DNA of 25,324 nt from positions 1 through 25,324 of the forward strand of contig JBBFMJ010000001.1 of the NCBI GenBank assembly GCA_037478515.1, written 5' to 3'. The position numbers were made by a program, and so were the translations under genes. The stretch's first letter is position 1, and every line of letters begins with the position of its first letter. The notes beneath the pieces are model-generated. The model was not told the DNA's origin. It worked only from the letters and a program-made list of their open reading frames with translations, and did not search any database. This document shows positions 364 through 24,853 of the stretch, piece after piece. Source of the DNA: Thermoanaerobaculia bacterium. Lineage in GTDB: Bacteria > Acidobacteriota > Thermoanaerobaculia > UBA2201.

Positions 364-370
364 AAAAAAG

Positions 371-458
371 TGCCGGAGGCCGGAATCGAACCGGCACGGA
401 GTGGGAAAACTCCGAGGGATTTTAAGTCCCTTGCGTCTACCAATTCCGCCACTCCGGC
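371..458 (-). tRNA. tRNA-Leu (anticodon TAA)
   Basis: Reverse complement GCCGGAGTGGCGGAATTGGTAGACGCAAGGGACTTAAAATCCCTCGGAGTTTTCCCACTCCGTGCCGGTTCGATTCCGGCCTCCGGCA: acceptor stem, D loop, anticodon loop CT-TAA-AA, long variable arm (CGGAGT/ACTCCG), TTCGA T loop, discriminator A. CCA is not encoded. Confidence 0.97.
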
Positions 459-471
459 TAAAAAATTTTAG

Positions 472-543
472 AGGCGACGAGCGGATTCGAACCGCTGCAT
501 CGTGGTTTTGCAGACCACTCCCTTACCACTTGGGTACGTCGCC
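472..543 (-). tRNA. tRNA-Cys (anticodon GCA)
   Basis: Reverse complement GGCGACGTACCCAAGTGGTAAGGGAGTGGTCTGCAAAACCACGATGCAGCGGTTCGAATCCGCTCGTCGCCT: anticodon loop CT-GCA-AA, TTCGAAT T loop, U73 discriminator typical of tRNA-Cys. CCA is not encoded. Confidence 0.97.
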
Positions 544-552
544 TTTTGAAAA

Positions 553-582
553 ATTATACCCCATATAAACTGACTTTGTCAA
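553..582 (-). promoter_or_regulatory. Sigma70-type promoter for the tRNA-Cys/tRNA-Leu unit
   Basis: Perfect TTGACA (582-577), 18-nt spacer, perfect TATAAT (558-553) on the minus strand, ending 9 nt upstream of the tRNA-Cys 5' end. Confidence 0.85.
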
Positions 583-721: not shown

Positions 722-1774
722 ATGGTTGGTATAGTTGGCTATGGTGCCTGTATTCCAAGGTACAGGATAAGAGTGGAAGAAATTGCAAAAAACTGGGGAG
801 CCAATGCTGAGAGTTATAAAAAGGGTTTGGGGCTTACTCAAAAATCTGTTCCAGCGCCAGATCAGGATGTTATCTCTCTTTCTGTGGAAGCTGCCAGAAA
901 TGCTTTAAAGAGGGCTAAGATTTCTCCAAAGGAAATTGGCTGCCTTTATATTGGTTCAGAATCCCATCCTTATGCTGTAAAACCTTCAGGGACTGTTGTG
1001 GCTGATGCAATTGGTGCAGCTGGGCATATCCACATCTCCTCTCTTGAATTTGCCTGTAAAGCAGGCACGGAGAGTATGTACCTTGCTTATGCCCAAGTGA
1101 AAGCCGGTCTTATTAAATATGGAATGGGTATAGGGGCTGATACTTCACAGGGTGCCCCATCTGATGCCTTAGAATATTCCACTGCTGCAGGGGCTGCCTC
1201 TTTTATCTTTGGCTCTGAAAATGTAATTGCAGAGGTAAACTTTACGCATTCTTATACAACAGACACCCCTGATTTTTGGAGAAGGGAATATCAACATTAC
1301 CCGAGGCATGGCTCCAGGTTTACTGGTGAGCCAGCATATTTTCATCATATTTATTCCTGCGCCAAAGCACTCCTGGAAAAATCAAATTTAAAGCCAGAGG
1401 ATTTCAAATATGCTGTATTTCATCAGCCCAATGGGAAGTTTCCACTAACAATTGGAAAAAAGCTTGGATTTAAAGAAGAACAGTTAAAGACAGGACTCCT
1501 GGTTCCAACCCTTGGAAATACCTATTCTGGTTCATCTCCTATGGGGCTTACTGCAATCCTGGATGAAGCAAAACCAGGGGATAAAATTTTTATGGTTTCC
1601 TTTGGCTCAGGTGCTGGTTCAGATGGGTTTATCTTTACTGTAACTGAAAGGATAAAAGAAGTTCAAAACCTTGCTCCAAAGACAAGGGATTATTTGGATA
1701 AAAAATTATTCTTCATTGATTATGGTACATATGCAAAGTTTAGAAAAAAGATTTTAAAATTAAAGGAAGATTAG
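722..1774 (+). CDS. mvaS: Hydroxymethylglutaryl-CoA synthase, archaeal type (about 350 aa)
   Basis: Motifs GIVGYGxxIPRYRI, [11 protein letters not shown] (Glu), EFACKAGT (catalytic Cys), [18 protein letters not shown] (His), [17 protein letters not shown]; adjacent to thiolase and DUF35 genes. Confidence 0.92.
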
Positions 1775-1782
1775 GGGGAGAT

Positions 1783-2940
1783 ATGAGAGAAATTGCAGTT
1801 TTAGGTTATGGTTTAACAAAATTTGGAGAGCTCTGGGATAAATCTTTAAGGGATCTTTTTGTAGAAGCATCCTTGAAGGCAATTGAAAAAGCAGGAATTG
1901 AGGAAATTGATGCTTTATATGTGGGATGTATGTCTTCTGGGCTCTTCAATGAACAGGAACACTTGGGTGCCCTTATGGCTGATTATTTAGGGAAAAATCC
2001 CATTCCCGCCACAAGGATTGAATCTGCTTGCGCTTCTGGTGGAGCTGCAGTCCTCCAAGGGGTTTATGCCATTGCCAGTGGATTTTATGAAACAGTTTTA
2101 GTTGGAGGGGTTGAAAAAATGACAGATATCTCCGGTGGAAATGCCACAATTGCTTTAGGAACTGCTGCTGATTCTTCCTATGAACTTTTCTTTGGTGCAA
2201 CCTTTCCAGGGCTTTATGCACTGATGGCAACTGCCCATATGGAAAAATATGGAACAACAAGGGATGCCCTTTCAATGGTTGCAGTCAAAAACCATTTCCA
2301 TGGAAAATTTAATCCCTATGCCCAGTTTCCCTTTGAAATTACAAAAGAACAGGTTTTACAATCCCCGATGGTGGCAGAGCCATTGCATCTTTTGGATTGT
2401 TCCCCAATTACAGATGGAGCCGCTGCAATTGTATTAACTACAAAGGAAAAGGCAGAAAAAATCGGAAAGCCATATATTTTGCTCAAAGGTTTTGGGCAGG
2501 CATCAGATACAATTGCCCTCTATCAAAGGGAAGACATTACATTTTTGGGAGCAGTTTCAAAGGCAGCAGAGAGGGCTTATAAAATGGCAAATATAGCCCC
2601 TAAAGATATCTGTGTTGCAGAAGTCCACGACTGCTTTACAATTGCAGAGATTATGGTTTATGAAGCATTGGGTTTTGCTGAAAAAGGAAAAGGGCAGGAG
2701 TTGATTTTAAAAGGTGAAACAAAATTGGGTGGGAAAATTCCAGTAAATACTTCTGGTGGGCTGAAAGCAAAGGGACATCCAGTAGGAGCAACAGGTGTTG
2801 CTCAAGTATGTGAAATTTTTCAACAACTTACAGGAGAAGCAGGAGAAAGACAAGTTGAAGGAGCAAAAATTGGGCTATGTCAAAATATGGGAGGCACTGG
2901 TGCCTCTTCAGTTGTAACAATTTGGGAGGTGAAAAAATGA
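1783..2940 (+). CDS. Acetyl-CoA acetyltransferase (thiolase), archaeal/SCP2-like type
   Basis: ESACASGG (nucleophile Cys), [46 protein letters not shown]; SD GGGGGAG upstream. Confidence 0.93.
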
Positions 2941-3335
2941 TTACTCCACCTATTGTCTGGAGAGAAAAAGCACAAAAATATCGTATGGAGGCAGGGAAAT
3001 GTAAAAAATGTGGAAAGATTTTGTTTCCACCAAGACTCATTTGTCCAAAATGTGGGGCAAAAGAATTTGAAACTATAAATTTGCCCTTAGAAGGAAAAAT
3101 TTTGTCTTGGACAGTCATACATACAGGCCACCCTGCTTTTTCAGATCTTCAACCCTATGGAATTTTAATTGTTGAACTTATAGAGGATGTAAAACTTTTA
3201 ATGCCCTTTGCAGATTTTACAAAAGAGGATTTAAAAATTGGAAATAAAGTAAAGATTGAATTTAGAAAGATTCAAGAAGGTGGCGAATCTGGTGTAATTG
3301 CCTATGGGTATAAAGCAGTCCCATGTTTAGAATAG
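2937..3335 (+). CDS. DUF35-family Zn-ribbon/OB-fold protein (scaffold of the thiolase/HMGCS complex)
   Basis: CKKCG..FPPR..CPKCG zinc ribbon followed by an OB fold ([38 protein letters not shown]). Start reassigned from 2877 to ATG 2937: ATGA overlap with the thiolase stop and SD GGAGGT at 2925-2930. Confidence 0.92.
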
Positions 3336-4930
3336 AATCAAAGATAAATACTTCTTCTGAAGAGTTTAAAGAAAATTATAAGTATCAAAAAGAAAAAATT
3401 GAAGAGTATTTAAAAATCTTAGAAGAAGTAAAAAAAGGGGGACATGAAGAAGCAAGACAAAAGCATGTAAAAAGGGGAAAAATGCTTGTTAGGGAAAGGA
3501 TAGATGCCCTCCTGGATCCTGGTTCACCTTTCATAGAACTAAATCCCCTTGCTGCCTATGGAATGTATGAAAATCAAGCACCCCAGGCAGGGATTATCAC
3601 TGGAATTGGAAGGGTATGCGGGCAGGAAGTTATGATTGTTGCAAATGATGCCACTGTAAAGGGTGGGACATATTTTCCAATTACAATAAAAAAACATATA
3701 AGGGCACAGGAAATTGCAATTGAAAATCGCCTTCCCTGCATTTATTTGGTGGATTCAGGTGGAATTTTTTTGCCCCTTCAAGAAGGAACTTTTCCAGATA
3801 AGGAACATTTTGGAAGAATTTTTTACAACCAAGCAGTTATGTCTTCCTTAAATATCCCACAAATAAGTGCTGTTATGGGATCCTGTACAGCAGGGGGTGC
3901 ATATCAACCAGCAATGTCAGATGAGACAATAATTGTTAAAGGGGAAGGGACAATTTTTATTGGTGGTCCTCCATTGGTCAAAGCAGCAACTGGAATTGAT
4001 GTTACACCTGAAGAACTTGGCGGTGCAGATGTTCATTGTAAAATTTCAGGGGTCTCTGATTATTATGCTTTAAATGATGAGCATGCAATAGCACTTTTGA
4101 GAAACATAATGGAAGGTGTTCCAAAGCCCCAGAAATTTCCCTTGGATAGAATTGAGCCAGAAGAACCCTATTATGATCCAGAAGAAATCTTAGGGATTAT
4201 TCCAAGGGATTTAAAAAAACCCTTTGATATAAGGGAAATTATTGCAAGGATCTTTGATGGAAGCAAGTTTTCTGAATTTAAAGAATATTATGGTCCAACA
4301 TTGGTTTGTGGTTTTGCTCGCCTTTATGGTTATCTGGTAGGGGTAGTGGCAAACAATGGAGTTTTGTTTTCCCAATCAAGCCAAAAGGGTGCCCATTTTA
4401 TTTCAATCTGTGCCATAAGGAAAATTCCACTGATTTTTTTACAGAATATAACTGGATTTATTGTGGGAAAGGAATATGAACATGGAGGGATTGCAAAGGA
4501 TGGGGCAAAGATGGTCCATGCTGTTGCAGTTGCACAGGTTCCAAAGTTTACAGTAATTGTAGGGGCCTCCCATGGGGCAGGAAATTATGCAATGTGTGGA
4601 AGGGCTTATGACCCAAGGTTTTTATTTATGTGGCCTACATCTAAAATTTCAGTTATGGGTGGGGAACAGGCAGCAGATGTTTTAGTACAAGTTAAAAGGG
4701 AACAGCTTAAAGCAAAAGGGGAAGAGCTTTCAAAAGAAGAAGAAGAAAAGATGAGAAAACCTGTTTTGGAAAAGTATGAATATGAATCAAGTGCCTATTA
4801 TTCCACTGCCAGGTTATGGGATGATGGGATTATCCTTCCATATGAGACAAGAAAAATTCTTGGGCTTTTGCTGGAAACATCTTTGAATGCCCCCATCCCA
4901 GACCACAAGTTTGGAGTTTTTAGAATGTAA
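3323..4930 (+). CDS. mccB: Acyl-CoA carboxylase carboxyltransferase, 3-methylcrotonyl-CoA carboxylase beta-subunit type
   Basis: [109 protein letters not shown]. No biotin carboxylase or BCCP gene in the window. Confidence 0.88.
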
Positions 4931-4931
4931 T

Positions 4932-5609
4932 ATGTTTAAAATAATTATTATATCCAAATCTTCTAAAATTCCCTGGGAAAAAGTTGAAATTTTAAGAAGA
5001 AAGGACTTTAATTTGACCTTTGAAGAAAATTTTGAAAATGGGTTTCAGAGACTGGCAAAGGATAATTTTGACCTATTTATCGCAGAAGAAGACCCTTCTT
5101 CCAGCTCCTTTTTAATCTTTATAAACCAGATATTAAATCAGCTTAAAATTTCAAATCTAAAAGGAATAATAATATCCTCAACTTCTTCCAATCTTAAACC
5201 TTTGGGACCTATAAAAAAGATTATTTTAAAGCCCTTTAAGGTAGAAGAACTGGAAGATGCAATAGCTAACTGCCTAAATTTAAAGAAAAGGATTTCCAGA
5301 AGATATCTGGTAAGGATGCACTTGGGAGTTGGAGAAGATAAATTTACCTCTTTTAAGACCTGTGTAGCATTGAATTTAAATAAAGGAGGTATGCTCATTG
5401 AAACTCAGGGGAATTTACCAATTGGAAAGACATACTGGTGGACATTTCAGGGTGTTAAAGAATTGGAAAATATATCCATAAGAGGGAAGATTGTAAATGA
5501 AGCACCCATTGAAGGTTTTTCTTTAAATTTTAGGTATGGTGTCAAGTTTGATGAAGAGTGCAGGGATACCATAAAAAAAATTGAAAAATTTCTGGAGGAA
5601 AATTTCTAA
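4932..5609 (+). CDS. Receiver-like (REC) domain fused to a PilZ-like domain
   Basis: N-terminal REC-like pattern (FDLFIAEED, ILKPF); C-terminal RxxxR (RISRR) and NLNKGG resembling the PilZ [D/N]xSxxG motif, then GVKF. Start reassigned from 4887 to ATG 4932, 1 nt after the mccB stop. Confidence 0.65.
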   Translation: MFKIIIISKSSKIPWEKVEILRRKDFNLTFEENFENGFQRLAKDNFDLFIAEEDPSSSSFLIFINQILNQLKISNLKGIIISSTSSNLKPLGPIKKIILKPFKVEELEDAIANCLNLKKRISRRYLVRMHLGVGEDKFTSFKTCVALNLNKGGMLIETQGNLPIGKTYWWTFQGVKELENISIRGKIVNEAPIEGFSLNFRYGVKFDEECRDTIKKIEKFLEENF

Positions 5610-6136
5610 TGTCTGAAGGCCTCAAAGATTATTTTTCGGCTGGAGAATGGAAAGAATTTCTTTTTAATTTATCAAAGCTTTTAAATCTTTCTGTTTGCAA
5701 TTTTATTTTAAGCTGGGATGAAAAGATTCAAAAGACAATAAATGAAAATCCCTTGTGTATTAAGATAAGGGAAAAGGAGGAGGGGCTAAAACTCTGCAAT
5801 AGAATGTATGAGGAACACTTGCAGAAGATTAAAGGAAATAATACCCCTCAGATTTTTTATTGTCATGCTTCCCTTGCAAGGGTACTTATGCCTGTAAATT
5901 TTCAAGACAGTAGATTTGTAATGATTATGTGTGGCCTAAGGTGTAAAATAAAGCCCCGAGTTGACTGGAAAGTGATGGAAAACATTATTCCAAGGGATGA
6001 TTTTTTAAAACTATTTAAAAAATTGCCCTATATCCCTTATAAAAAAGTATCTTTGAGCGTGGACACCCTTCATTTTTTATTTAAAAATATAATTGAATTG
6101 CTTTTGATAAAGGAAAATTTAAAAAAATTAATTTAA
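5609..6136 (+). CDS. Stand-alone PocR-like sensory domain protein
   Basis: NPLCIKIRE....LKLC, FYCHASLARVLMPV, MIMCG match the Cys-rich PocR ligand-binding pattern; TAATG overlap with the upstream gene; no output domain. Confidence 0.7.
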   Translation: MSEGLKDYFSAGEWKEFLFNLSKLLNLSVCNFILSWDEKIQKTINENPLCIKIREKEEGLKLCNRMYEEHLQKIKGNNTPQIFYCHASLARVLMPVNFQDSRFVMIMCGLRCKIKPRVDWKVMENIIPRDDFLKLFKKLPYIPYKKVSLSVDTLHFLFKNIIELLLIKENLKKLI

Positions 6137-6141
6137 TTTTG

Positions 6142-6150
6142 TGTTATAAT
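6142..6150 (+). promoter_or_regulatory. Extended -10 promoter for the ALDH-nadC unit
   Basis: TG-T-TATAAT at 6142-6150, followed by SD AAGGAGGT at 6163-6170 and ATG 6174. Confidence 0.65.
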
Positions 6151-6173
6151 AAGCAAAATTTTAAGGAGGTAAT

Positions 6174-7700
6174 ATGGACATTAAAAAAGTATTAGATTTT
6201 TTTGAATTTGAAGATTTAAATTCTGGGGTATATGGTAAGGACTGGATAAAAAATCCAAAGGGTGGCGAGCTGGTTTCAGAAAATCCTGCCAATGGAAAAG
6301 TAATTGCAAAGGTGCTTCAAGCAAGTGAAGAGGACTATGAAGAAGTGGTAAAAAATGCACACGAAAGCTTTTTAAAATGGAGAAAAGTTCCCCCTCCAAA
6401 AAGGGGTGAAATTATAAGACAGTTGGGACTAAAGTTGAGGGAATATAAAGAGCCCTTAGGCCTTCTTGTAACTTATGAAATGGGAAAGATAAAGACAGAA
6501 GGGCTTGGGGAGGTCCAGGAAATGATAGATATGGCTGATTTTTCAGTGGGGCTTTCCAGGCAACTTTATGGCTTAACCATTGCTTCTGAGAGAGAAAATC
6601 ATAGAATGATGGAGCAGTGGCACCCCTTAGGGGTAATTGGAATAATCACTGCCTTTAATTTTCCAGTGGCTGTCTGGTCCTGGAATGCCTGTATTGCTGC
6701 TGTTTGTGGGGATACCATGGTATGGAAGCCTGCTTCTGACACCCCCCTTACTGCCATTGCTGTTCAAAAAATATGTGATAAAGTTATGAAGGAAAATGGG
6801 CTTTCCTCAATTTTTACCCTTTGTATTGGAAAAGGTTCTGTGGTGGGTGAAAAAATGATAAATGACAGTAGATTACCCCTTATTTCCTTTACTGGTTCCT
6901 GCGCTATGGGAAAAAGGGTTGCAGAAAGGGTGGCATCCAGATTTGGAAAGACAATCCTGGAATTGGGTGGGAATAATGGAATTATTTTGATGGAAGATGC
7001 AAATTTAGATCTGGCATTAAGGGCAGTCCTCTTTGCAGCTGTGGGTACCGCAGGACAAAGATGCACCACTTTAAGGCGTCTTATAATTCAAAAATCCATT
7101 CTGGATAAATTTTCTGAAAGGTTGATAAAGGCATATTCCAGTGTAAAGATCGGGAATCCCTGGGAAGAAGGTATTTTAATGGGACCTCTGGTAAATAAGG
7201 GTGCTCAGGATACCTACAAGGAAGCCATTGAAATAATTAAAAAGCAAGGTGGGAAAATCCTCTATGGTGGAAGAGTAATTGAAAGGGAAGGATATTTTGT
7301 GGAGCCCACCATAGTTCTGGCAAACCCAAATATGGAAATAGTCAAAGAAGAAACCTTTGCTCCAATTTTATATCTTTTGCCCTTTGAAACTCTTGAAGAA
7401 GCTATAAAAATACACAATGGAGTGCCTCAGGGCTTATCTTCTGCAATTTTTACAAATAATTTACAAAATGCAGAGTTCTTTTTATCCCCAGAAGGCTCTG
7501 ATTGTGGAATTGCCAATGTAAATATTGGAACTTCTGGCGCAGAGATTGGAGGTGCCTTTGGTGGGGAAAAGGACACTGGTGGTGGAAGGGAAGCTGGCTC
7601 TGATTCCTGGAAGGCATATATGAGGAGGCAGACCTGCACAATTAATTATGGTACCACTCTTCCTCTGGCTCAAGGTGTTAAATTTGATATAGAAGAATAG
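6174..7700 (+). CDS. Aldehyde dehydrogenase, ALDH7/antiquitin family (alpha-aminoadipate semialdehyde/P6C dehydrogenase-like)
   Basis: EMGKIKTEGLGEVQEMID, SER..HRMMEQWHPLG, AFNFPVAVWSWN, SFTGS, LELGGNN (Glu), GTAGQRCTT (catalytic Cys), CGIANVNIGTSGAEIGGAFGGEK.TGGGRE.GSDSWK.YMRRQT.TINY, PLAQG. Confidence 0.92.
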   Translation: MDIKKVLDFFEFEDLNSGVYGKDWIKNPKGGELVSENPANGKVIAKVLQASEEDYEEVVKNAHESFLKWRKVPPPKRGEIIRQLGLKLREYKEPLGLLVTYEMGKIKTEGLGEVQEMIDMADFSVGLSRQLYGLTIASERENHRMMEQWHPLGVIGIITAFNFPVAVWSWNACIAAVCGDTMVWKPASDTPLTAIAVQKICDKVMKENGLSSIFTLCIGKGSVVGEKMINDSRLPLISFTGSCAMGKRVAERVASRFGKTILELGGNNGIILMEDANLDLALRAVLFAAVGTAGQRCTTLRRLIIQKSILDKFSERLIKAYSSVKIGNPWEEGILMGPLVNKGAQDTYKEAIEIIKKQGGKILYGGRVIEREGYFVEPTIVLANPNMEIVKEETFAPILYLLPFETLEEAIKIHNGVPQGLSSAIFTNNLQNAEFFLSPEGSDCGIANVNIGTSGAEIGGAFGGEKDTGGGREAGSDSWKAYMRRQTCTINYGTTLPLAQGVKFDIEE

Positions 7701-7701
7701 G

Positions 7702-8541
7702 ATGAGCCAGAAATTTGCTTTAATTGAAAACTTAGAAAATTTACTTCCCCTTGCCTTCACAGAAGACCTTCCAGATATAACCTCTGAAGCCATCTGTCTT
7801 TCCTCTGAAAATCTTATGGCAAAGCTCATTGCCAAAGCCACAGGTGTAATTTGCGGGATACCTCTTCTGCCTTATATTTTTCAATACAGGATGTCAAATA
7901 TATCTGTAACTCCAATGGCACACGACGGGGATGTGGTCCAGAAGGGTTCCCAGATTGCCATTATTGAAGGTTCTGCACTGGGGATTTTATCTTCGGAGAG
8001 GATTGCTTTAAATTTTCTTCAAAAACTATCTGGAATAGCCACCTTAACCCGTAGATTTGTAACTTTGCTCCAGGGTACAGGGGTAACCCTTCTGGATACT
8101 CGAAAGACAACCCCTGGATGGAGATATCTGGAAAAATACGCCACAAGGGTAGGGGGGGCAAAGAATAACAGGATGAGTGCTTCAGAGGCAATTATGATAA
8201 AGGATAATCACCTGGCTGTTACTAAATCCCTCTCAAAAGCAGTCCAGAGGGCAAGGGAGTTTTATGGTGAAAAGGTCGAAATAATTCTGGAAGTAAGAAA
8301 TCTGGAAGAGCTAAGGGAAGCCCTTTCTCTTAATGTAAACAGGATAATGCTGGACAATTTTTCTTTGGAAGATGTAAAGAAAGCAGTTCAAATGGTTCAA
8401 AAGAAAGTGCCCCTGGAAGTTTCTGGGGGTATAAATTTACAGAATGTAAAGGACTATGCTCAAACTGGAATAGATTTTATTTCTGTGGGTGCCATAACCC
8501 ATTCTGCCCCTGCTCTGGATATTTCCTTAGAAGTTAGCTGA
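7702..8541 (+). CDS. nadC: Quinolinate phosphoribosyltransferase (nicotinate-nucleotide diphosphorylase, carboxylating)
   Basis: ERIALNFLQKLSGIAT, DTRKTTPG, IKDNH, IMLDNF, EVSGGI, GIDFISVGAITHSAPALDISL. Confidence 0.95.
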   Translation: MSQKFALIENLENLLPLAFTEDLPDITSEAICLSSENLMAKLIAKATGVICGIPLLPYIFQYRMSNISVTPMAHDGDVVQKGSQIAIIEGSALGILSSERIALNFLQKLSGIATLTRRFVTLLQGTGVTLLDTRKTTPGWRYLEKYATRVGGAKNNRMSASEAIMIKDNHLAVTKSLSKAVQRAREFYGEKVEIILEVRNLEELREALSLNVNRIMLDNFSLEDVKKAVQMVQKKVPLEVSGGINLQNVKDYAQTGIDFISVGAITHSAPALDISLEVS

Positions 8542-13616: not shown

Positions 13617-13625
13617 ATTTTGGAT

Positions 13626-14801
13626 ATGAAAAGCGTAATTTATCCCAACCTATCCCAGTTAGTAAAAAAGTATGGTAAGTTTGATGGTCGTCTCTGTTAT
13701 AACTGTGGAACCTGCACAGTTTCCTGTCCTATGGCAGACGAGACCACTTCTTTTCCAAGAAGGCCTATTCAAATGGTCCATGTGGGGGAGAAAGATAAAT
13801 TAATATCTATGGTTGAGCCATGGATCTGTCACTGGTGTGGGGACTGCTCAGCCAATTGTCCCCAGAAAGCAGAACCAGGGGAATCGATGAATACCATCAG
13901 AAAATACCTCTCCTCTGTTTATGACTGGACTGGGATTTCCTCAATTTTTAATAAATACTGGATTTTTAAAATTGGGCTTTATCTTTTTTCCATTGCTTTA
14001 ATCTTTGGATTGATTGCCTATTATCACATAAAAGAAGTGGGTATCTCTTTTTCTGACCTATTAAAAATGACCCCTTCGGAGATGAGTGATTCAAATTTAG
14101 GCCATGTCTTTGGAACAACTAAAATAATGTTTTATTTTACCTATGCTTTCTTCCTTTTGCCTTTAATTATACTCATAACCAACGGGATGAGGATGTGGTA
14201 TTTCACAATGAAAAGGAATAGTGCCCTTAAAATTCCCTTCTCCCTTTACCTTTCAGAACTTAAAAATTTCTTAATCCTTGGACTTACCCAGAAAAAATTC
14301 AAAGAATGCAAGGAAAAGAGTATGTGGACAAGGCACGTAACCCTTTTTGCTGGCTTTCTTTTGATTTCAATAATTGTATTTTTCTTTTTGAAATTTTTCC
14401 AGACCGATGCCATTTATCCCATCTACCATCCTCAAAGATGGCTTGGCTACATTGCTACAATCCTGATGCTTTATGGAAGTACTGCTATGATATTAGGGAG
14501 AATAACAAAGAAGGAAGAGATACACAAAAAGAGCGATTTTTCTGATTGGTCCCTTCCAATTTTATGTTTTCTTGTGGCTTTAAGCGGAATACTTATCCAT
14601 ATCTTTAGATATGTAAAAATGGAAAAGGCATCCCACTATATGTTTCTTGCTCATATTTTGATTTTAGCCCCGTTGATGCTCAAAGAACTTCCCTTTGGAA
14701 AGCTTGCCCACCTCCTCTACCATCCTCTTGGTCTTTACTTTAAAGGGGTAAAAGACAGAGCCATTAAGATGGAAGAAGAAAAAGAAGCAAAGGTTGCCTA
14801 A
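13626..14801 (+). CDS. qmoC: QmoC-like protein: HdrC-like 2x[4Fe-4S] domain plus NarI-like transmembrane (heme b) domain
   Basis: CYNCGTCTVSCP and CHWCGDCSANCP; several TM helices; YHPQRWLGY and PFGKLAH, which I recognise from QmoC; His pair in the last helix (LAH...KLAH). Start at ATG 13626 or TTG 13620. Confidence 0.8.
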   Translation: MKSVIYPNLSQLVKKYGKFDGRLCYNCGTCTVSCPMADETTSFPRRPIQMVHVGEKDKLISMVEPWICHWCGDCSANCPQKAEPGESMNTIRKYLSSVYDWTGISSIFNKYWIFKIGLYLFSIALIFGLIAYYHIKEVGISFSDLLKMTPSEMSDSNLGHVFGTTKIMFYFTYAFFLLPLIILITNGMRMWYFTMKRNSALKIPFSLYLSELKNFLILGLTQKKFKECKEKSMWTRHVTLFAGFLLISIIVFFFLKFFQTDAIYPIYHPQRWLGYIATILMLYGSTAMILGRITKKEEIHKKSDFSDWSLPILCFLVALSGILIHIFRYVKMEKASHYMFLAHILILAPLMLKELPFGKLAHLLYHPLGLYFKGVKDRAIKMEEEKEAKVA

Positions 14802-14828
14802 AATTTGAAATAAGGAGGGATATTAAAT

Positions 14829-15698
14829 ATGATTGAACAAAAGGTTGGAGCAGCAATGATAGTGGGTGGAGGGATTGGGGGAATGCAGGCAGCCCTAGAC
14901 CTGGCTGAATCAGGAATAAAGGTCTATATTGTGGAAAAGGACTCAGCCATTGGTGGAGTTATGGCTATGCTGGATAAAACCTTCCCCACCAATGACTGTG
15001 CTATGTGTACTATGGCTCCCCGTCTTGTTTCAATTGGAAGGCATAAGGATATTGAAGTTATTTCCATGGCATCCATTGAAAGGGTTGAAGGGGAAAAGGG
15101 AAATTTTAAAATAAGGATTAAAAAGAATCCAAGATATGTGGATGAAGAAAAGTGCACTGGCTGTGGCAGTTGTATTGAAAACTGCCCTGTCTATTTTAAA
15201 GTCCAGCCCTTAAAAATAGAAAGGACAAAACTGGATCCCAAATTTGAAAAGGTAAAGGAAATTGTAGCCAAACATAAGAACAGAAAAGGATTCCTGATGC
15301 CCATACTTCAGGAAATAAATGCCACCTATTATTACCTTCCAGAAAATGCTTTAAGATATGTGGCTGAAGAGACAGGCACACCTTTAATAAATATTATGAG
15401 AATAGCAACCTTTTACAGTGCCTTCAGCATAACCCCTAGGGGAAAGAATTTAATAAATGTATGCACCGGAACTGCTTGCTATGTGAAGGGAGCAGATCGT
15501 CTGATGGAAAAGTTTCAGGAAGTTTTGGATATTCCGGAAGGGGGAACCACAAAAGATATGCTCTTTACTTTAAAATCAGTTCGCTGCATTGGTTGTTGTG
15601 GTCTGGCTCCTGCAATAATGGTCAATGATACTGTCTATGGAAAACTTCTCCCCAAGGATGTGCCTGACATAATTAAAAAATACAAGGAGGCTTCATAA
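14829..15698 (+). CDS. Fusion: N-terminal HdrA fragment (FAD Rossmann start plus half a ferredoxin) and NuoE/HndA-like [2Fe-2S] domain
   Basis: Residues 1-121: IVGGGIGGMQAALDLA, EK...IGG.MA.LDKTFPTNDCAMC, PRYVDEEKCTGCGSCIENCPV. Residues ~136-289: LMPILQEIN..Y.YLP, ATFYSAFS..PRGK..INVCTGTACYVKG, VRCIGCCGLAP. SD AGGAGG upstream. Confidence 0.9.
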   Translation: MIEQKVGAAMIVGGGIGGMQAALDLAESGIKVYIVEKDSAIGGVMAMLDKTFPTNDCAMCTMAPRLVSIGRHKDIEVISMASIERVEGEKGNFKIRIKKNPRYVDEEKCTGCGSCIENCPVYFKVQPLKIERTKLDPKFEKVKEIVAKHKNRKGFLMPILQEINATYYYLPENALRYVAEETGTPLINIMRIATFYSAFSITPRGKNLINVCTGTACYVKGADRLMEKFQEVLDIPEGGTTKDMLFTLKSVRCIGCCGLAPAIMVNDTVYGKLLPKDVPDIIKKYKEAS

Positions 15699-15699
15699 T

Positions 15700-16083
15700 A
15701 TGCCAAAGCTAACCCTTGAAGATTTAAAGAAAAAAAGAGAAGAGGCAAGGTCTAAACTTTATTTAAGAGATGGAGAATTCAGAGGGAAAGTAATTGTCCA
15801 TATGGGAACCTGTGGAATTGCAGCAGGGGCAAGGGAAATAGTGGAACAATTTCTTGAAGAGGTGGAAAAAAACAATGCCAGAGACATTCAAATAACCACT
15901 TCCGGGTGTGCTGGTTTGTGCTCAAAGGAACCTATGGCAACGGTAGAGATAAAAGGTGCAGCTCCAGTAAAATACATAACCCTTAGCAGAGATAAAGTCA
16001 AAAAGATTTTTAAAGAACATATATTGGAAGGAAAAATTGTAGCTGAATATGCCCTTGGTGTGGGCTCTGAAAAAGGAGGTTAG
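15700..16083 (+). CDS. Thioredoxin-like ferredoxin, HndB/HydD-like
   Basis: VHMGTCGIAAGAR and TSGCAGLCSKEP; lies between the NuoE-like and NuoF-like genes, as hndB does in hndABCD. Confidence 0.85.
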   Translation: MPKLTLEDLKKKREEARSKLYLRDGEFRGKVIVHMGTCGIAAGAREIVEQFLEEVEKNNARDIQITTSGCAGLCSKEPMATVEIKGAAPVKYITLSRDKVKKIFKEHILEGKIVAEYALGVGSEKGG

Positions 16084-16086
16084 AAT

Positions 16087-17979
16087 ATGGCTACAAGAAG
16101 AATAGAACTTATGCTTTGTACTGGGACAGGTTGTGTGGCGGGGGGTGCCTTTAGAATAAAGGATGCCCTGGAGAAGGAAATAAAAAAACACAACCTTCAA
16201 AATGAAGTTTCTGTGGTTATAACTGGTTGTAATGGCTTTTGTGGGCAGGGTCCTATAATGGTTGTAAAACCAGACGATATTTTTTATGGTTTTTTAAATG
16301 AGCAGGAAATAGGGTATCTGGTGGAGGAACACCTTTTAAAAGGCAGGCCTGTAAAAAAATTTATGTTTACGCCCCCAGAAAAGAAGGAGCCCATTAAACT
16401 TTTGAGCGAAATTCCCTTCTTCCAGAAACAGATGCTTATTGTTTTAAGAAATAAAGGAATCATTGATCCGGAAAACATTGAAGAGTATATTGCCAGAGAT
16501 GGTTATGCTGCCCTGGAAAAGGTTCTAACCTCAATGAAGCCAGAAGAAGTCATAGAAGAGATAAAAAAATCTGGATTGAGGGGAAGGGGTGGTGCTGGAT
16601 TTCCCACGGGCCAGAAATGGGAAGTTTGTTTCAAACAGAAGGTTAAACCAAAATATTTAATCTGTAATTGTGATGAGGGAGATCCCGGCGCTTATATGGA
16701 CAGGTCTGTCTTTGAAACAGATCCCCATTCTGTAATTGAAGGTATGATAATTGCTTCCTACGCCTGTGATATAGATCAGGCATTTATTTATATAAGAACA
16801 GAATATCCCCTGGCAGTGCAGAGAGCAGCCAAGGCAATTCAGCAGGCAAAGGAATATGGACTTTTAGGGAAAAATATTTTGGGAACAAATTTTAGTCTGG
16901 ACATTGAAATAAGGGAAGGTTCAGGTGCCTTTGTATGTGGAGAAACCACTTCCCTGCAGCATTCCATTGAAGGTAAAAACCCAGAACCCAGGCAGAGACC
17001 TCCCAGGACTTCTGAAAAGGGCTTATGGGATCAACCCACAGTGGTAAATAATGTGGAAACCCTGGCAAATGTACCTGTTATCATTTTAAGGGGTGGTGAC
17101 TGGTATGCCAGCATTGGCACTGAAAAAAGCAAAGGGACTAAAATATTTTCTCTTGTAGGAAAGGTAAATAACACGGGCCTTGTGGAAGTTCCTATGGGTA
17201 TAACTTTGAGGGAAATGATTTATGATATAGGTGGTGGAATTCCAAAGGGGAAAAAATTTAAAGCAGTTCAAACGGGTGGTCCTTCTGGTGGCTGTATCCC
17301 AGAAAAATATCTGGATACACCTGTGGATTTTGAAACTTTAACTTCCCTGGGTTCAATGATGGGTTCTGGTGGTATGATTGTAATGGACGAAGATACTTGC
17401 ATGGTGGATGTAGCAAAATATTTTATACAATTTACCAATGATGAGTCCTGTGGAAAATGCACCATCTGCAGGGAAGGTTCAGGGGCTTTACTGGAGGTTT
17501 TAACAAGGATTACAGAAGGAAAAGGCAAGGAAAGAGATATTGAATATTTAGAAGAACTCTGTGCAGCCATAATTGATGGATCCCTCTGTGGTCTGGGAAA
17601 CAGTTTGCCCTATCCAGTTTTAACTACTCTTAAATATTTCAAAGAAGAATATGAAGCCCATATTAAAGAGAAAGCGTGCCCTGCCAGATCCTGTAAAAGT
17701 TTAATTAAATACTGGATTGATCCAGACAGGTGCGTGGGCTGTCTATTATGTATGAAAAACTGTCCCACCAATGCCATATCAGGGAAAACAAAATTTATCC
17801 ATACTATAAATTATGAATTATGTACAAAATGTGGAAACTGTTTTGATGTCTGCCCTGAAAAAGTAGGGGCAGTTAAAAAACTAACAGGTACTGAACCTGA
17901 AAAAGTGGTCTATTTAAAGGAGCCAGTTGCAGTGGGGGATTGGAAAAAACAAAAACAAGAGGAGGGAAAAAATGATTAA
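16087..17979 (+). CDS. NuoF/HndC/HydB-like NAD(P)H-binding flavoprotein, long form with extra FeS domains
   Basis: N-terminal Trx-like CTGTGC...GCNGFC; SGLRGRGGAGFPTG; CNCDEGDPGAYMDR; GAFVCGETTSL; NNVETLAN; GGPSGG; SCGKCTICREG/SLCGLG; EDTC and H...K.CPARSC site; C-terminal CVGCLLCMKNCP and CTKCGNCFDVCP. Confidence 0.93.
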   Translation: MATRRIELMLCTGTGCVAGGAFRIKDALEKEIKKHNLQNEVSVVITGCNGFCGQGPIMVVKPDDIFYGFLNEQEIGYLVEEHLLKGRPVKKFMFTPPEKKEPIKLLSEIPFFQKQMLIVLRNKGIIDPENIEEYIARDGYAALEKVLTSMKPEEVIEEIKKSGLRGRGGAGFPTGQKWEVCFKQKVKPKYLICNCDEGDPGAYMDRSVFETDPHSVIEGMIIASYACDIDQAFIYIRTEYPLAVQRAAKAIQQAKEYGLLGKNILGTNFSLDIEIREGSGAFVCGETTSLQHSIEGKNPEPRQRPPRTSEKGLWDQPTVVNNVETLANVPVIILRGGDWYASIGTEKSKGTKIFSLVGKVNNTGLVEVPMGITLREMIYDIGGGIPKGKKFKAVQTGGPSGGCIPEKYLDTPVDFETLTSLGSMMGSGGMIVMDEDTCMVDVAKYFIQFTNDESCGKCTICREGSGALLEVLTRITEGKGKERDIEYLEELCAAIIDGSLCGLGNSLPYPVLTTLKYFKEEYEAHIKEKACPARSCKSLIKYWIDPDRCVGCLLCMKNCPTNAISGKTKFIHTINYELCTKCGNCFDVCPEKVGAVKKLTGTEPEKVVYLKEPVAVGDWKKQKQEEGKND

Positions 17980-20900
17980 GATTATTGTGGATGGAAAAGA
18001 AGTAGAAATTGAAGGTGGTCAAAAATTAATTAAAGCAGTGGAAGCAGCAGGGGTAAAGGTTCCAACCCTTTGCTATCATAAGGCATTGAGCCCCTATGGT
18101 GCTTGCCGTTTGTGCGTGGTGGAGGTGGGGGCAAAGGGAAGGAGTAAATCCGTCCAGGCATCCTGTACTTACCCTGCCAGCGATGGGCTGGAAGTTTTGA
18201 CTAATACAGAGAGGGTAAGAAGGGTAAGAAAGATTGCTTTAGAACTTCTGCTTGCTAGGTGCCCCTCTTCTGAAACCATCCAGCTTCTGGCTGCTGAATA
18301 TGGGGTCTTTGAGCCCAGGATTGAAAAGAAAAATGAGGACTGTATAAATTGTGGGCTCTGCATTAGGATGTGTGAAGAGAGGATGGGAAGAAAGGTCTTA
18401 GGTTTTACAGGAAGGGGTCCAAGAAAAAAATTAGAGCCACCCTTTTCGGCAAAAAATCCTGCCTGCTGGGCCTGTGGTGCCTGTAATTTTATTTGCCCAG
18501 TGGGAAAGAAAGTTACAGATCTTACTACAGATCTGGAATTCAAACCCATTGAAGATAGATTCAATAGGGGTTTGAGCAGCAGGGCAGTTGCCCATATCCT
18601 CTATCCCCAGGCAGTACCAGCCAAGGCAGTTCTGGACCCAGAAAATTGTATTAGGTTAAATTATGATGCCTGTGGTATCTGCGCTGAAGTATGCGAACCC
18701 AAGGCAATAAATTTTGAAGACAAGGGTAAGGAGCTGGAAATAAATGTGGGTTCCATAATCCTTGCCCCTGGATTTGATCCTTACAAACCAGAGGAAAAGG
18801 AAGATTTGGGTTATAAAAAATTTCCAAATGTGGTTACCTCCATTGAATTTGAAAGAATCCTCTCTGCTTCAGGTCCCTACTGCGGAGAGGTAAAGAGGCC
18901 CTCTGATGGAAAACATCCAGAAAAGATTGCCTTTATCCAATGCGTTGGATCAAGAGAAAAGGAAAGAAACTGGTGCTCTTCTGTTTGCTGTATGTATGCC
19001 ACAAAGGAAGCAATTATGGCAAAGGAACATGCAGGGGAGAGTTTAAAATGTGATATCTATTTTATGGATGTGAGGGCATATTCAAAGGGTTTTGAACAAT
19101 ATTATGATAGTGCCAAGAAGCTGGGAATAAATTATATAAGGTGCAGGGTTCCAAAACTGGAGGAAAACCCAGAAAATAAAAATATCATAGTAACCTATCT
19201 TGGTGAGGATGATAGAAAATTAAAAGCAGAATATGATATGGTTATACTTTCCATAGGCCTCTGCCCTCCTTCAGATGCAAAGAAAATAGCTGAAAAATTT
19301 GGCATTGACTTGAACGAATTTGGTTTTGCTTCCTCTTCCACCTTCAAGCCAGTGGAGACAAAAAGGGAAGGGATTTACATTGCAGGTCCCTTCACGGAGC
19401 CCAAGGATATTCCAGAAACAGTAATGCAGGCAACTGCTTCTGCTTCTAAGGCACTTTCAGTGCTGGCTGATGTAAAGGGTCAGCTTATAAAGCCCATGGT
19501 ATTTCCTGAGGAAGTGGATGTTACAGGGCAGGAGCCCAGAATTGGGGTATTTGTATGCCATTGCGGAACAAATATTGCAGGAGTTGTAAATGTTCCGGAA
19601 GTGGTGGAATATGCAAAAACCCTTCCCAATGTGGTCTTTGCCACTAATACAATTTATACCTGCTCCAATGATACCCAGGAACTTATAAAACAAAAGATAA
19701 AGGAATACAATTTGAATAGAATTATTGTCTCTGCTTGCACTCCAAGAACCCATGAACCCCTTTTCAGAAATACTGTAAAGGAAGCGGGTTTAAATCCCTA
19801 TCTCTTTGAAATGGCAAATATAAGGGATCAAAACTCTTGGGTGCATATGCAGTTCCCCGATGCAGCAACTAAAAAGGCAAAGGACCTCGTCAGAATGGCA
19901 GTGGCAAAGGCAAGATTGCTAGAACCTTTACAGAACAGCTACATAGATATAATAAAAAATGCCCTGGTAATTGGGGGTGGTATTGCAGGTATGAAGGCAT
20001 CCATGGAGCTGGCAAATCAAGGATACAAAGTTTACCTTTTAGAAAAGACAGGGGAACTGGGTGGAAATTTAAGGAATATCCATTATTTATTAAACGGAGA
20101 AAATCCAAAAGAGGAGCTGGAAAAGATTATAAAAGAGGTAAAGGAAAATAAAAATATTGAAATTTACTTTAATGCAAAAATAGAAGAGGTGGAGGGCTCC
20201 GTGGGAAGGTATAAGACAAAGATAAAATCCAATGGAAATGAGTATGTTTTTGAACATGGAGTTGTAATAATTGCAATGGGTGGAAAGGAATATGAGCCCA
20301 AAGAATATATGTATGGAGAAGATGGAAGGGTCCTCACCCAGAGGCAATTGGAAGAAAAGATTGCAAAAAAAGAAATTAAACTTCCTGAAACTGTGGTAAT
20401 GATCCAGTGCGTGGGTTCCAGAGAAGGGGAAAGGCCATCCTGTTCAAGGATATGCTGCGGTATTGCCATAAAGAATGCATTAAAAATCAAGGAAATTTCA
20501 CCAAAAACCAATGTTTTCATACTTTACAGAGATGTAAGGGCTTATGGATTTAAAGAAAAGTATTACACTCTGGCAAGGGATAAAGGGGTAACCTTTATAA
20601 GATGGGATATTGAAGATGGAAAACCAGCCGTTTATAAAAATAATGGAAAAATATATGTTGATGTAAAGGATAAGATTTTGAATATGGAGCATACAATTCC
20701 AGCAGACCTTGTAGTTTTATCCACTGGGGTTATGCCTAACGAAGATCATAAAGAAGTTGCCCAGCATTTTAAGGTTCCGGTTACTGCAGAAGGATACTTT
20801 CTGGAAGCCCATATGAAACTCCGGCCTGTGGACTTTGCCACAGATGGTGTTTTCCTTGCAGGTCTTGCTCATTTCCCCAAGACCATTGATGAAAGCATAA

Positions 20901-21220
20901 TCCAGGCACAGGCATCGGCAGCAAGGGCAGCAACTATTCTTTCAAAGGACAAATTAGAGCTGGAAGCCACAATTTCAAAAGTCATTGATGAAAACTGCGA
21001 TGGTTGTGCTTACTGTGTGGATACCTGTCCTTACAAAGCCATTACCCTTCTGGAATATGTTTTTCAGGGCAGCATAAAGAAGACCGTGGAAGCCAATGAA
21101 AGCTTATGCAAGGGCTGTGGGACCTGTATGGCAACCTGCCCAAAGAAAGGTATTCTTGTAAAGGGCTTTACCTTGGAGCAGCTGCAGGCACAGGTCTTTG
21201 CAGCACTTGAACAATCTTAA
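17972..21220 (+). CDS. Fusion: NuoG/HndD-like N-terminal FeS region, remainder of HdrA copy 1, and a complete second HdrA/QmoB-like module
   Basis: Start reassigned from 17927 to ATG 17972 (SD AGGAGG). Res 1-178: PTLCY, GACRLCVVE, ASC, CINCGLCIRMC, CWACGACNFICP. Res ~192 onward: RFNRGLSSRA...YPQAVP, ENC...CGICAEVC, VGSIILAPGF, TSIEFERILSASGP, FIQCVGSR, CSSVCCMYATKEA, AGP...PKDIPETV. Then IGVFVCHCG.NI, ACTPRTHEPLF, NIRDQ, ALVIGGGIAG, MIQCVGSR, CSRICC, EAH.KLRPV, CDGCAYCVDTCP, CKGCGTCMATCP. Confidence 0.92.
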   Translation: MIKIIVDGKEVEIEGGQKLIKAVEAAGVKVPTLCYHKALSPYGACRLCVVEVGAKGRSKSVQASCTYPASDGLEVLTNTERVRRVRKIALELLLARCPSSETIQLLAAEYGVFEPRIEKKNEDCINCGLCIRMCEERMGRKVLGFTGRGPRKKLEPPFSAKNPACWACGACNFICPVGKKVTDLTTDLEFKPIEDRFNRGLSSRAVAHILYPQAVPAKAVLDPENCIRLNYDACGICAEVCEPKAINFEDKGKELEINVGSIILAPGFDPYKPEEKEDLGYKKFPNVVTSIEFERILSASGPYCGEVKRPSDGKHPEKIAFIQCVGSREKERNWCSSVCCMYATKEAIMAKEHAGESLKCDIYFMDVRAYSKGFEQYYDSAKKLGINYIRCRVPKLEENPENKNIIVTYLGEDDRKLKAEYDMVILSIGLCPPSDAKKIAEKFGIDLNEFGFASSSTFKPVETKREGIYIAGPFTEPKDIPETVMQATASASKALSVLADVKGQLIKPMVFPEEVDVTGQEPRIGVFVCHCGTNIAGVVNVPEVVEYAKTLPNVVFATNTIYTCSNDTQELIKQKIKEYNLNRIIVSACTPRTHEPLFRNTVKEAGLNPYLFEMANIRDQNSWVHMQFPDAATKKAKDLVRMAVAKARLLEPLQNSYIDIIKNALVIGGGIAGMKASMELANQGYKVYLLEKTGELGGNLRNIHYLLNGENPKEELEKIIKEVKENKNIEIYFNAKIEEVEGSVGRYKTKIKSNGNEYVFEHGVVIIAMGGKEYEPKEYMYGEDGRVLTQRQLEEKIAKKEIKLPETVVMIQCVGSREGERPSCSRICCGIAIKNALKIKEISPKTNVFILYRDVRAYGFKEKYYTLARDKGVTFIRWDIEDGKPAVYKNNGKIYVDVKDKILNMEHTIPADLVVLSTGVMPNEDHKEVAQHFKVPVTAEGYFLEAHMKLRPVDFATDGVFLAGLAHFPKTIDESIIQAQASAARAATILSKDKLELEATISKVIDENCDGCAYCVDTCPYKAITLLEYVFQGSIKKTVEANESLCKGCGTCMATCPKKGILVKGFTLEQLQAQVFAALEQS

Positions 21221-21236
21221 ATTAAAGAGGTGAAAT

Positions 21237-21653
21237 ATGTCTGAGAACTTTGAACCCTTCATAATTGCTTTTTGTTGTAACTGGTGTTCCTATGCAGCAG
21301 CAGACCTGGCAGGGGTCTCCAGGTTTCAGTATCCCCCTAATATGAGGCTTATTAGAGTTATGTGTTCTGGTATGGTGCATCCAAACCTTATAATTGATGC
21401 CTTGACAAGGGGTGCTGACGGCGTAATTGTTTGTGGATGCCACCCAGGGGACTGCCATTATCTTTCAGGAAATCTGGTTGCAAAGAAAAGGGAAGAGGGT
21501 ATCTATTTAATGCTGGATGACTTGGGGATTGAAAGGGACAGGTTCCGCTTGGAATGGATTTCTGCTGCAGAAGGAATTAAATTTTCTCAGGTTATGAAGG
21601 AATTCACCGAGCAAATAAGAAAACTGGGTCCCAGCCCTTATAGAACATTTTAA
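21237..21653 (+). CDS. mvhD: Methyl-viologen-reducing hydrogenase delta subunit ([2Fe-2S], MvhD/FlpD family)
   Basis: AFCCNWCSYAAAD, RLIRVMCSG, GADGV..CGCHPGDCHY, RFRLEWISAAEG. Confidence 0.95.
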   Translation: MSENFEPFIIAFCCNWCSYAAADLAGVSRFQYPPNMRLIRVMCSGMVHPNLIIDALTRGADGVIVCGCHPGDCHYLSGNLVAKKREEGIYLMLDDLGIERDRFRLEWISAAEGIKFSQVMKEFTEQIRKLGPSPYRTF

Positions 21654-21662
21654 GGAGTGCTT

Positions 21663-21854
21663 ATGAACCTCTCCAAAATATTTGAAGGAAAAAAATTTAT
21701 GTGGGATGGGGGGGAGTATAAAGATGAAAAGGAAGCCACAGAAGTGATGAATAAATACAAAAATGATGGTTTTGAGACCTATCTTTATAAGGAAAATGAT
21801 AAATATTATGTTTTTACAAGAAAAGTGGTATCAGAAATTAAGGTTGAAAGCTGA
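21663..21854 (+). CDS. Small hypothetical protein (63 aa) inside the Hdr-Mvh operon
   Basis: SD AAGGAG at 21652-21657, 5 nt before ATG 21663 (alternative GTG 21657). KKFMWDG...Y...GFE.....YYVFTRKVV; fills the gap between mvhD and mvhG; no Cys. Confidence 0.8.
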   Translation: MNLSKIFEGKKFMWDGGEYKDEKEATEVMNKYKNDGFETYLYKENDKYYVFTRKVVSEIKVES

Positions 21855-21859
21855 TGCCC

Positions 21860-21888
21860 TTGAAAATGTTTTAAAAAAAGCTTAATAT
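21860..21888 (+). promoter_or_regulatory. Candidate internal promoter upstream of mvhG
   Basis: TTGAAA (21860-21865), 17 nt, TAATAT (21883-21888); SD AAGGAGGT before ATG 21934. The region is AT-rich, so a chance match is possible. Confidence 0.45.
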
Positions 21889-21891
21889 AAA

Positions 21892-21911
21892 TTGAGAGTT
21901 GGGACTCTCAA
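21892..21911. repeat. Perfect 8-bp hairpin in the mvhG leader
   Basis: TTGAGAGT-TGGG-ACTCTCAA; no plus-strand U tract follows. Confidence 0.65.
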
Positions 21912-21933
21912 AATAAATAAATAAGGAGGTTTT

Positions 21934-22860: not shown

Positions 22861-22875
22861 TTTAAGGAGGAAAAA

Positions 22876-24318: not shown

Positions 24319-24324
24319 AAATTT

Positions 24325-24360
24325 AAGGCACGGCTTAAAAAATAAGCCGTGCCTTTTCTT
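24325..24360 (+). terminator. Intrinsic terminator-like hairpin after mvhA
   Basis: AAGGCACGGCTTA-AAAAA-TAAGCCGTGCCTT: perfect 13-bp stem with a 5-nt loop; its end runs into TTTTCTT. Confidence 0.85.
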
Positions 24361-24852
24361 ATGGAAAATTACCCATCTTACTGTCTTAAGAAAAATTTAG
24401 TTTTAGGTTGTGGAAATATCTTTTTTGGCGATGATGGTTTTGGTCCTGAATTTATAAAGTACCTGGAAGAAAGTGGATTGATACCAGAGGATACAATTGC
24501 CATAAATGCAGGTTTAAGCATAAGAGAAATTTTATTTAACATTGTTTTAAGTGATAAAAAGCCAGAAAGGATAGTTATAATAGATGCTGTAGATTTAGGG
24601 GAAGAGCCAGGAGAGATTTTTGAGGTAGACCTGGATGAGATTCCCAAAATTAAGATAGATGATTTTTCTATGCACCAGATGCCCACTTCCAATCTTTTAA
24701 AGGAATTAAAAGAGAAAGGAAATGTGGAGGTAAGGGTTTTATCAATTCAGGTAGAAAATATCCCCGAAGAGATAAGCCCTGGAATATCAGAAAAACTAAA
24801 AAATTCTTATGAAAAAATGTATCAAAAATTAGTAAAAATACTGGAGGAATAA
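24361..24852 (+). CDS. Hydrogenase maturation endopeptidase (HyaD/HycI/FrhD family)
   Basis: LVLGCGNIFFGDDGFG, IVIIDAVD.G..PG, SMHQ. ATG 24361 preferred because GTG 24349 lies inside the terminator stem. Confidence 0.92.
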   Translation: MENYPSYCLKKNLVLGCGNIFFGDDGFGPEFIKYLEESGLIPEDTIAINAGLSIREILFNIVLSDKKPERIVIIDAVDLGEEPGEIFEVDLDEIPKIKIDDFSMHQMPTSNLLKELKEKGNVEVRVLSIQVENIPEEISPGISEKLKNSYEKMYQKLVKILEE

Positions 24853-24853
24853 T

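Follow-up and report, generated by a model that had tools for sequence, protein, structure and literature searches.

What does a bacterium do with an archaeal-type machinery for 3-hydroxy-3-methylglutaryl-CoA (HMG-CoA) when the next gene along belongs to leucine degradation? The question is raised by a stretch of 25,324 nucleotides (the window; contig JBBFMJ010000001.1, here C1) of a Thermoanaerobaculia bacterium (GCA_037478515.1), in which genes for an HMG-CoA synthase, a thiolase and a DUF35 protein, together called the triad, are followed by mccB, encoding the beta subunit of 3-methylcrotonyl-CoA carboxylase (MCC). On balance, the locus is best explained by a pathway in which leucine would be degraded to HMG-CoA and the triad complex would then run in reverse, yielding three acetyl-CoA and saving one ATP per leucine. 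The locus would represent the first part of a catabolic cluster for leucine and isovalerate (liu) in which the final step has been exchanged. The four co-directional genes are as follows.

722..1774, + strand: archaeal-type HMG-CoA synthase, 350 aa (TIGR00748, 527 bits, cut-off 353; NF003274, 536 bits, cut-off 244)
1783..2940, + strand: acetoacetyl-CoA thiolase of the archaeal/SCP2-like type, 385 aa (NF004720, 557 bits, cut-off 420)
2937..3335, + strand: DUF35 zinc-ribbon/OB-fold scaffold, 132 aa (PF12172 and PF01796; PDB 6ESQ chain E, E 4e-25)
3323..4930, + strand: MCC beta subunit (MccB/LiuB), 535 aa (PF01039)

All three triad products are close homologues of the subunits of the thiolase/HMG-CoA synthase/DUF35 channelling complex of Methanothermococcus thermolithotrophicus (PDB 6ESQ/6ET9), which are likewise encoded together. 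The synthase has 6ESQ chain I as its best PDB match (E 8e-134) and an intact catalytic tetrad, E80-C112-H234-N266. The thiolase matches 7YVY (E 5e-117) and 6ESQ chain A (E 3e-113) and carries C83, HDCF (H282) and GHP (H332), and the DUF35 protein, whose true start at 2937 forms a 4-nt ATGA overlap with the thiolase stop, has the zinc ribbon C22xxC25, C36xxC39. With three adjacent genes and a synthase of the TIGR00748 family, the triad is of the intact archaeal type; the original paper on the archaeal complex is reportedly Voegeli 2018. In that complex, the E-C-H-N tetrad and the CxS, HDxF and GHx motifs are needed for HMG-CoA formation (PMC12960953). The PhlABC/MucABC Friedel-Crafts acyltransferases share the three-gene architecture and the folds (PhlA, E 1e-60), but these repurposed complexes have lost the tetrad and HDxF (PMC12960953), whereas both are intact in the window triad, and no polyketide synthase or non-ribosomal peptide synthetase lies nearby.

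MccB is assigned as an MCC beta subunit and not as one of geranyl-CoA or propionyl-CoA carboxylase (PCC). It matches human and Pseudomonas MCC beta at E 1e-220, geranyl-CoA carboxylase at 1e-142 and true PCC beta at 2e-88 or weaker, and its invariant residues include F163 (position of human Phe191) and the oxyanion-hole glycines G191-G192 and G418-A419. A Phe at the position of human Phe191 is taken as a mark of MCC beta. The window genome (G000) is a metagenome-assembled genome of 2.1 Mb and 83% completeness, and it was compared with its four nearest relatives (G001-G004), among them G001 of the same genus (97% complete) and G002 of the same family; four of the five genomes are 94-98% complete. 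The 13-nt overlap of mccB with the DUF35 gene (3323-3335), pointed out in a preliminary description of the locus, is real and kept in G001, G002 and G003.

The 80 loci nearest to the query triad were surveyed, with taxa including Acidobacteriota, Aminicenantes, Zixibacteria, Ignavibacteria, Coatesbacteria, Eisenbacteria and Bacillota. The synthase tetrad motifs are intact in 77 of these loci, mccB lies within the triad locus in 37, and in 29, from many phyla, it directly follows the DUF35 gene. The linkage of triad and mccB is thus conserved, and the junction of HMG-CoA with the methylglutaconyl-/methylcrotonyl-CoA steps, proposed in the preliminary description, is borne out by it. It lies far beyond chance, by a Fisher test that is overstated as kin are not independent. 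Triad, mccB, hydratase and biotin carboxylase occur together in 26 loci and 10 further loci are broken off, while a lyase or HMG-CoA reductase gene was found in 0 of the 80. In all 24 scored clusters, the catalytic motifs of the biotin carboxylase are intact. A quick, midpoint-rooted MccB tree, with triad rows picked by synthase similarity, grouped 36 of the 37 triad-linked MccBs in a single clade, with lyase-linked MccBs falling outside it even when they come from the same classes (SH-aLRT 100); by this tree, MccB has co-diverged with the triad. Genes for PCC, mutase and dehydrogenase recur near the cluster, the triad adjoining PCC/mutase genes in L090, L054, L062 and L080, and no lipid-synthesis gene recurring near it was found. 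A search for residues that would mark an MccB as decarboxylating gave 11 columns in which the triad-linked and the lyase-linked proteins differ; several are shared with human or other canonical MCC, and nothing diagnostic emerged.

The preliminary description had called MccB an orphan, which is true locally: no biotin carboxylase, biotin carboxyl carrier protein (BCCP), hydratase or lyase was found within the 25-kb window. Genome-wide, the term does not hold, judging from gene content, because a matching hydratase and biotin carboxylase lie on another contig. Three biotin carboxylases occur in G000, namely AccC, the PCC alpha subunit and one on the short contig C349, where a LiuC-like hydratase gene (best family PRK05674, score below cut-off) overlaps the downstream biotin carboxylase gene. 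The latter product is 62% identical to the G002 carboxylase encoded two genes past mccB, and an acyl-CoA dehydrogenase on contig C93 is 70% identical to the cluster-linked dehydrogenase of G002. The intact G002 cluster runs dehydrogenase (divergent), synthase, thiolase, DUF35, mccB, hydratase, carboxylase and BCCP, while that of G004 is split in the same way as in G000. Contig C349 stops before any BCCP gene, which in G002 and G004 comes after the carboxylase. The proposal that MccB acts as a lone decarboxylase is not supported, given this carboxylase and hydratase, both conserved with MccB. The mccA- and liuC-like genes were located on C349, while liuE and hmgR were not found in G000-G004. 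A second carboxyltransferase (PccB/MmdA-like, 36% to MccB) is encoded with a small BCCP at C4:1987-3865 of G000, with no adjoining biotin carboxylase.

The distribution of the triad was compared with that of HMG-CoA lyase in 41 genomes of the same class (12 with and 29 without the triad), 50 triad genomes outside the class and 71 genomes of a second class drawn irrespective of the query; since kin are not independent, the counts are patterns and not tests. Within the class, the lyase occurs in 0 of the 12 triad genomes and in 25 of the 29 others (24 of 28 without the unpublished G007), and a lyase match is present in each of the 19 triad-less genomes that have a close MccB. Eight loci of triad-less relatives carry mccB-liuC-mccA-bccp-liuE in a row, that is, mccB, hydratase, carboxylase, BCCP and lyase. 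No PF00682 or NF004283 match and no HMGL-like fold was found in G000-G004, which agrees with the suspicion that this is not ordinary liu catabolism. Among the distant triad genomes, weak lyase-family matches occur in five and HMG-CoA reductase in nine; the match of G068, the sole one with readable context, lies in a leuCD-like cluster. In the second class, the synthase occurs in 57 of 71 genomes and lyase-family matches in 12, eight with and four without the synthase. Four of these eight are weak, and a leuB/leuCD-like cluster is the setting of the three that were read; another three of the eight represent a divergent free-standing triad and a canonical lyase cluster in the same genome, and in one, G094, the two modules are neighbours. 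The triad-less G099 and G107 carry mccB-hydratase-carboxylase-BCCP-lyase-atoDA-thiolase-dehydrogenases-ilvE. Triad and lyase are near mutually exclusive, with the same cassette swap in the second class, and the triad therefore behaves as an exchangeable alternative to lyase, CoA-transferase and thiolase.

Compared with the Liu pathway (liuABCDE of Pseudomonas and the isovalerate cluster of Desulfococcus multivorans, PMC5109826), the cluster has MccB, biotin carboxylase and BCCP in common, together with candidates for the hydratase and the acyl-CoA dehydrogenase, and its gene order is that of lyase-bearing relatives. It differs in having the triad instead of LiuE/HmgL and an acetoacetate CoA-transferase, whereas D. 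multivorans induces HmgL on isovalerate (PMC5109826). Without LiuE it is not a canonical liu member, though it would work like the liu pathway, and the replacement of the lyase by the triad is a real, conserved variant of a known pathway with a probably reversed enzyme step.

Further modules were seen around these genes. The MccB-like carboxyltransferases of loci L136-L141 (G013, G033, G009, G025, G017, G029) form a clade of their own (~49% identity); no biotin carboxylase gene is close by, and the genomes have a free-standing triad and no lyase. These proteins are better candidates for a true orphan or decarboxylase than the MccB of the window. AtuA (DUF1446) genes adjoin mccB-type genes or the triad in L201 (G021), L202 (G008), L119 (G029), L037, L065, L082, L105 and L044, and AtuA occurs in all four genomes of the class that lack both triad and lyase. 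L202 reads carboxyltransferase-atuA-hydratase, and its counterpart L204 reads carboxyltransferase-lyase-like-hydratase. Cleavage modules may thus be of three interchangeable kinds, AtuA being the third. In L217-L220, a recurring cluster combines genes for LeuC/LeuD-like subunits and a LeuB-like dehydrogenase with those for an HMGL-like protein and a probable family III CoA-transferase.

With regard to the fate of HMG-CoA, no HMG-CoA reductase (PF00368), no family I CoA-transferase or AibAB-type protein (PF01144; 0 of 5) and no acetoacetate CoA-transferase was found in G000-G004. HMG-CoA is thus left in these genomes, which also lack an HMGL-like protein, without a known exit. All five carry dxr of the methylerythritol phosphate pathway, so isoprenoids need not derive from HMG-CoA. 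In contrast to the M. thermolithotrophicus complex, the triad is found here in a bacterial host with dxr and no reductase, is tied to MCC and is proposed to work in the cleaving direction; the locus appears to be built from an intact archaeal-type complex standing outside any mevalonate pathway. Leucine synthesis was not found in G000-G004, nor were LeuA, IlvI, IlvC and IlvD in G000, which must therefore import leucine. G000 does have IlvE, VorB (over cut-off), electron-transferring flavoprotein (ETF), PCC, methylmalonyl-CoA mutase and an ADP-forming acetate-CoA ligase, through which it can, as predicted, convert acetyl-CoA into ATP. Its ferredoxin-dependent 2-oxoacid oxidoreductases, present in all five genomes, and an HdrA/Mvh hydrogenase cluster point to an anaerobe.

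A reversed route serving to make leucine seemed supported at first by IlvC in 19 of 40 linked genomes and LeuA in only 5-6. It was ruled out as the ilvC genes stand alone outside ilv operons and IlvD, with no match in 35 of the 40, is over cut-off in four only, all with LeuA; since the IlvD-positive genomes keep LeuA, the cluster is no substitute leucine pathway. Divergent lone ilvC genes occur in many genomes without ilvD and leuA (L160-L173), possibly for pantothenate synthesis.

In the proposed pathway, imported leucine would be converted by IlvE and a 2-oxoisovalerate:ferredoxin oxidoreductase to isovaleryl-CoA, which the acyl-CoA dehydrogenase with ETF would oxidize to 3-methylcrotonyl-CoA. 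MccB, the C349 biotin carboxylase and a BCCP would carboxylate this at the cost of one ATP, and the LiuC-like hydratase would lead to HMG-CoA. The synthase/thiolase/DUF35 complex would then catalyze HMG-CoA + 2 CoA -> 3 acetyl-CoA + H2O in place of lyase and acetoacetate CoA-transferase, with channelled thiolysis of acetoacetyl-CoA and drainage of acetyl-CoA through the ADP-forming ligase as the driving forces. One thioester more would be kept than by the lyase route, with a net 2 instead of 1 ATP from isovaleryl-CoA to acetate; from free isovalerate, the lyase route would net zero and the reversed triad one. The substrates of the dehydrogenase and the hydratase, the direction of flux and the reversal of the synthase are what we infer. 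The catabolic direction is favoured because G000 has no branched-chain synthesis and the cluster does not substitute for leucine synthesis, because the set from IlvE to acetate-CoA ligase is present, and because genes for PCC, mutase and dehydrogenase surround the triad in several loci and the biotin carboxylase is intact in every scored cluster. On a partial membrane-protein open reading frame ~1 kb downstream of etfA (L184:1590-2009, contig C354), a fragment without NCBIfam match, an ETF-linked Fe-S oxidoreductase is possibly encoded.

Several points weigh against this pathway. HMG-CoA synthase is normally regarded as irreversible, and we know of no experiment showing its net reversal; a back-reaction of the enzyme is said to be described in Theisen 2004. 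With free energies that we take to be about -33 kJ/mol for the synthase and about +26 kJ/mol for thiolase condensation, the cleavage to three acetyl-CoA is calculated to be uphill by ~+7 kJ/mol. By the same calculation, it proceeds at HMG-CoA/acetyl-CoA >1.5 if acetyl-CoA/CoA is 0.3; a ratio near 0.3 or lower is needed, and if the cost is +14 kJ/mol and the ratio 1, the reversal fails or is implausible. The archaeal complex is known solely to make HMG-CoA (PMC12960953). G001, despite its completeness, yielded no match for the hydratase/carboxylase pair, and single absences in G000 are weak at 83%. In G094 (L207), the triad and a full mccB-hydratase-carboxylase-BCCP-lyase cluster face each other on opposite strands, which breaks the rule of exclusivity. 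Exclusivity by itself fits both flux directions, as exclusion of the lyase also suits anabolism by avoiding a futile cycle. Seven genomes of the class have the triad with only a distant (~49%) carboxyltransferase, the latter standing alone in the six that were read; three of the seven have the reductase and four lack it. The triad thus has other uses where no close MccB is present.

The opposite direction, raised in the preliminary description as a reversed route to isovaleryl-CoA, comes second, and we consider it rather unlikely. The triad would make HMG-CoA from acetyl-CoA, the hydratase would dehydrate it, MCC would decarboxylate, possibly with ATP made at the biotin carboxylase, and the dehydrogenase would reduce to isovaleryl-CoA, as iso-fatty-acid primers or an electron sink. 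Each step of such a route is near equilibrium, and it matches the known direction of the triad. The separate clade of triad-linked MccBs, which may have specialised, also speaks for it and against cleavage. The route would resemble the Myxococcus xanthus AIB pathway (MvaS, LiuC, AibA/AibB, AibC), which serves as precedent and likewise connects the methylglutaconyl-/isovaleryl-CoA steps with an HMG-CoA synthase and LiuC (PMC5389471), with MCC replacing AibAB. The cluster itself is not the AIB pathway; it differs in the absence of an AibAB-type protein from G000-G004 and in having an archaeal-type channelled synthase, a biotin/ATP-dependent MCC and a flavin acyl-CoA dehydrogenase rather than AibC. 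What keeps this direction in play is the known synthetic role, the triad-only genomes, the gap in G001 and the MccB clade; it is set back by the import of leucine, from which IlvE and VorB could supply isovaleryl-CoA directly, by the failure to replace leucine synthesis, by the lack of a recurring lipid-synthesis neighbour where PCC, mutase and dehydrogenase genes recur, by the ATP-grasp carboxylase retained throughout, and by an MccB active site without clear change relative to lyase-linked proteins.

Cleavage of HMG-CoA without energy gain, by retro-aldol reaction and hydrolysis with release of free acetate or acetoacetate, would explain the same exclusivity and cassette swap without an uphill step and would resemble the action of the thiolase-fold/DUF35 aldolases of steroid degradation; thiolase-fold retro-aldolases exist (PMC12329534). 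It is nevertheless improbable, given that the acyl-carrying Cys, HDxF and GHx are retained by the thiolase, that the tetrad of the synthase is complete in nearly all loci, and that G000-G004 offer no CoA-transferase for free acetoacetate. A leucine-to-isoprenoid shunt, in which triad and MCC would both supply HMG-CoA to a mevalonate pathway, was the other proposal of the preliminary description and gains something from the reductase in the nine distant genomes and in three of the seven triad-only ones. It founders on the absence of the reductase from G000-G004, the dxr in all five, the reductase-free triad loci and the 41 of 50 distant genomes without reductase, and is very unlikely here. Hardly more credit can be given to a chance neighbourhood or decaying relic, with an unrecognised lyase elsewhere ending leucine catabolism: the splits in G000 and G004 and the missing pair in G001 would suit it, while gene order kept across many phyla, motifs all intact, orthologues 90-93% identical within the genus and the co-divergence of MccB with the triad do not.

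The remainder of the window holds genes of other kinds. A tRNA-Cys(GCA) and a tRNA-Leu(TAA) lie at 370-582 (-), divergent from the triad, with a perfect sigma-70 consensus promoter (12/12). No consensus promoter was found on the + strand upstream of 722, with promoter/terminator scan counts at chance level. One nucleotide after mccB, unrelated co-directional genes follow at 4932-8541, encoding a PilZ-domain protein, a PocR sensor, an L-piperideine-6-carboxylate dehydrogenase (over cut-off) and nadC. This order is the same in G001 and marks the rearrangement that split the cluster. A large redox cluster at 13620-25105 comprises a membrane Fe-S protein, an N-terminal part of HdrA fused to a NuoE-like domain, a NuoF-like protein, a NuoG-like domain fused to the remainder of HdrA, MvhD, [NiFe]-hydrogenase subunits and a maturation protease.

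A full-text literature search found no paper describing the triad-MCC cluster. The balance tips just in favour of a wider claim, that anaerobic peptide degraders of many phyla end leucine or isovalerate oxidation by a reversed, channelled HMG-CoA synthase/thiolase complex. If the direction were anabolic instead, the cluster would still be an undescribed route to isovaleryl-CoA with MCC serving as decarboxylase. Where the archaeal complex occurs in bacteria, it is commonly taken as a sign of the mevalonate pathway, and if it replaces the lyase, that annotation would be wrong for many uncultured anaerobes, on a scale indicated by the 57 of 71 genomes with the synthase in one sampled class. Reversal would be, to our knowledge, the first physiological net-cleaving use of HMG-CoA synthase, and by recovering the ATP spent on carboxylation it would readily explain how anaerobes short of energy can gain ATP from leucine or isovalerate.

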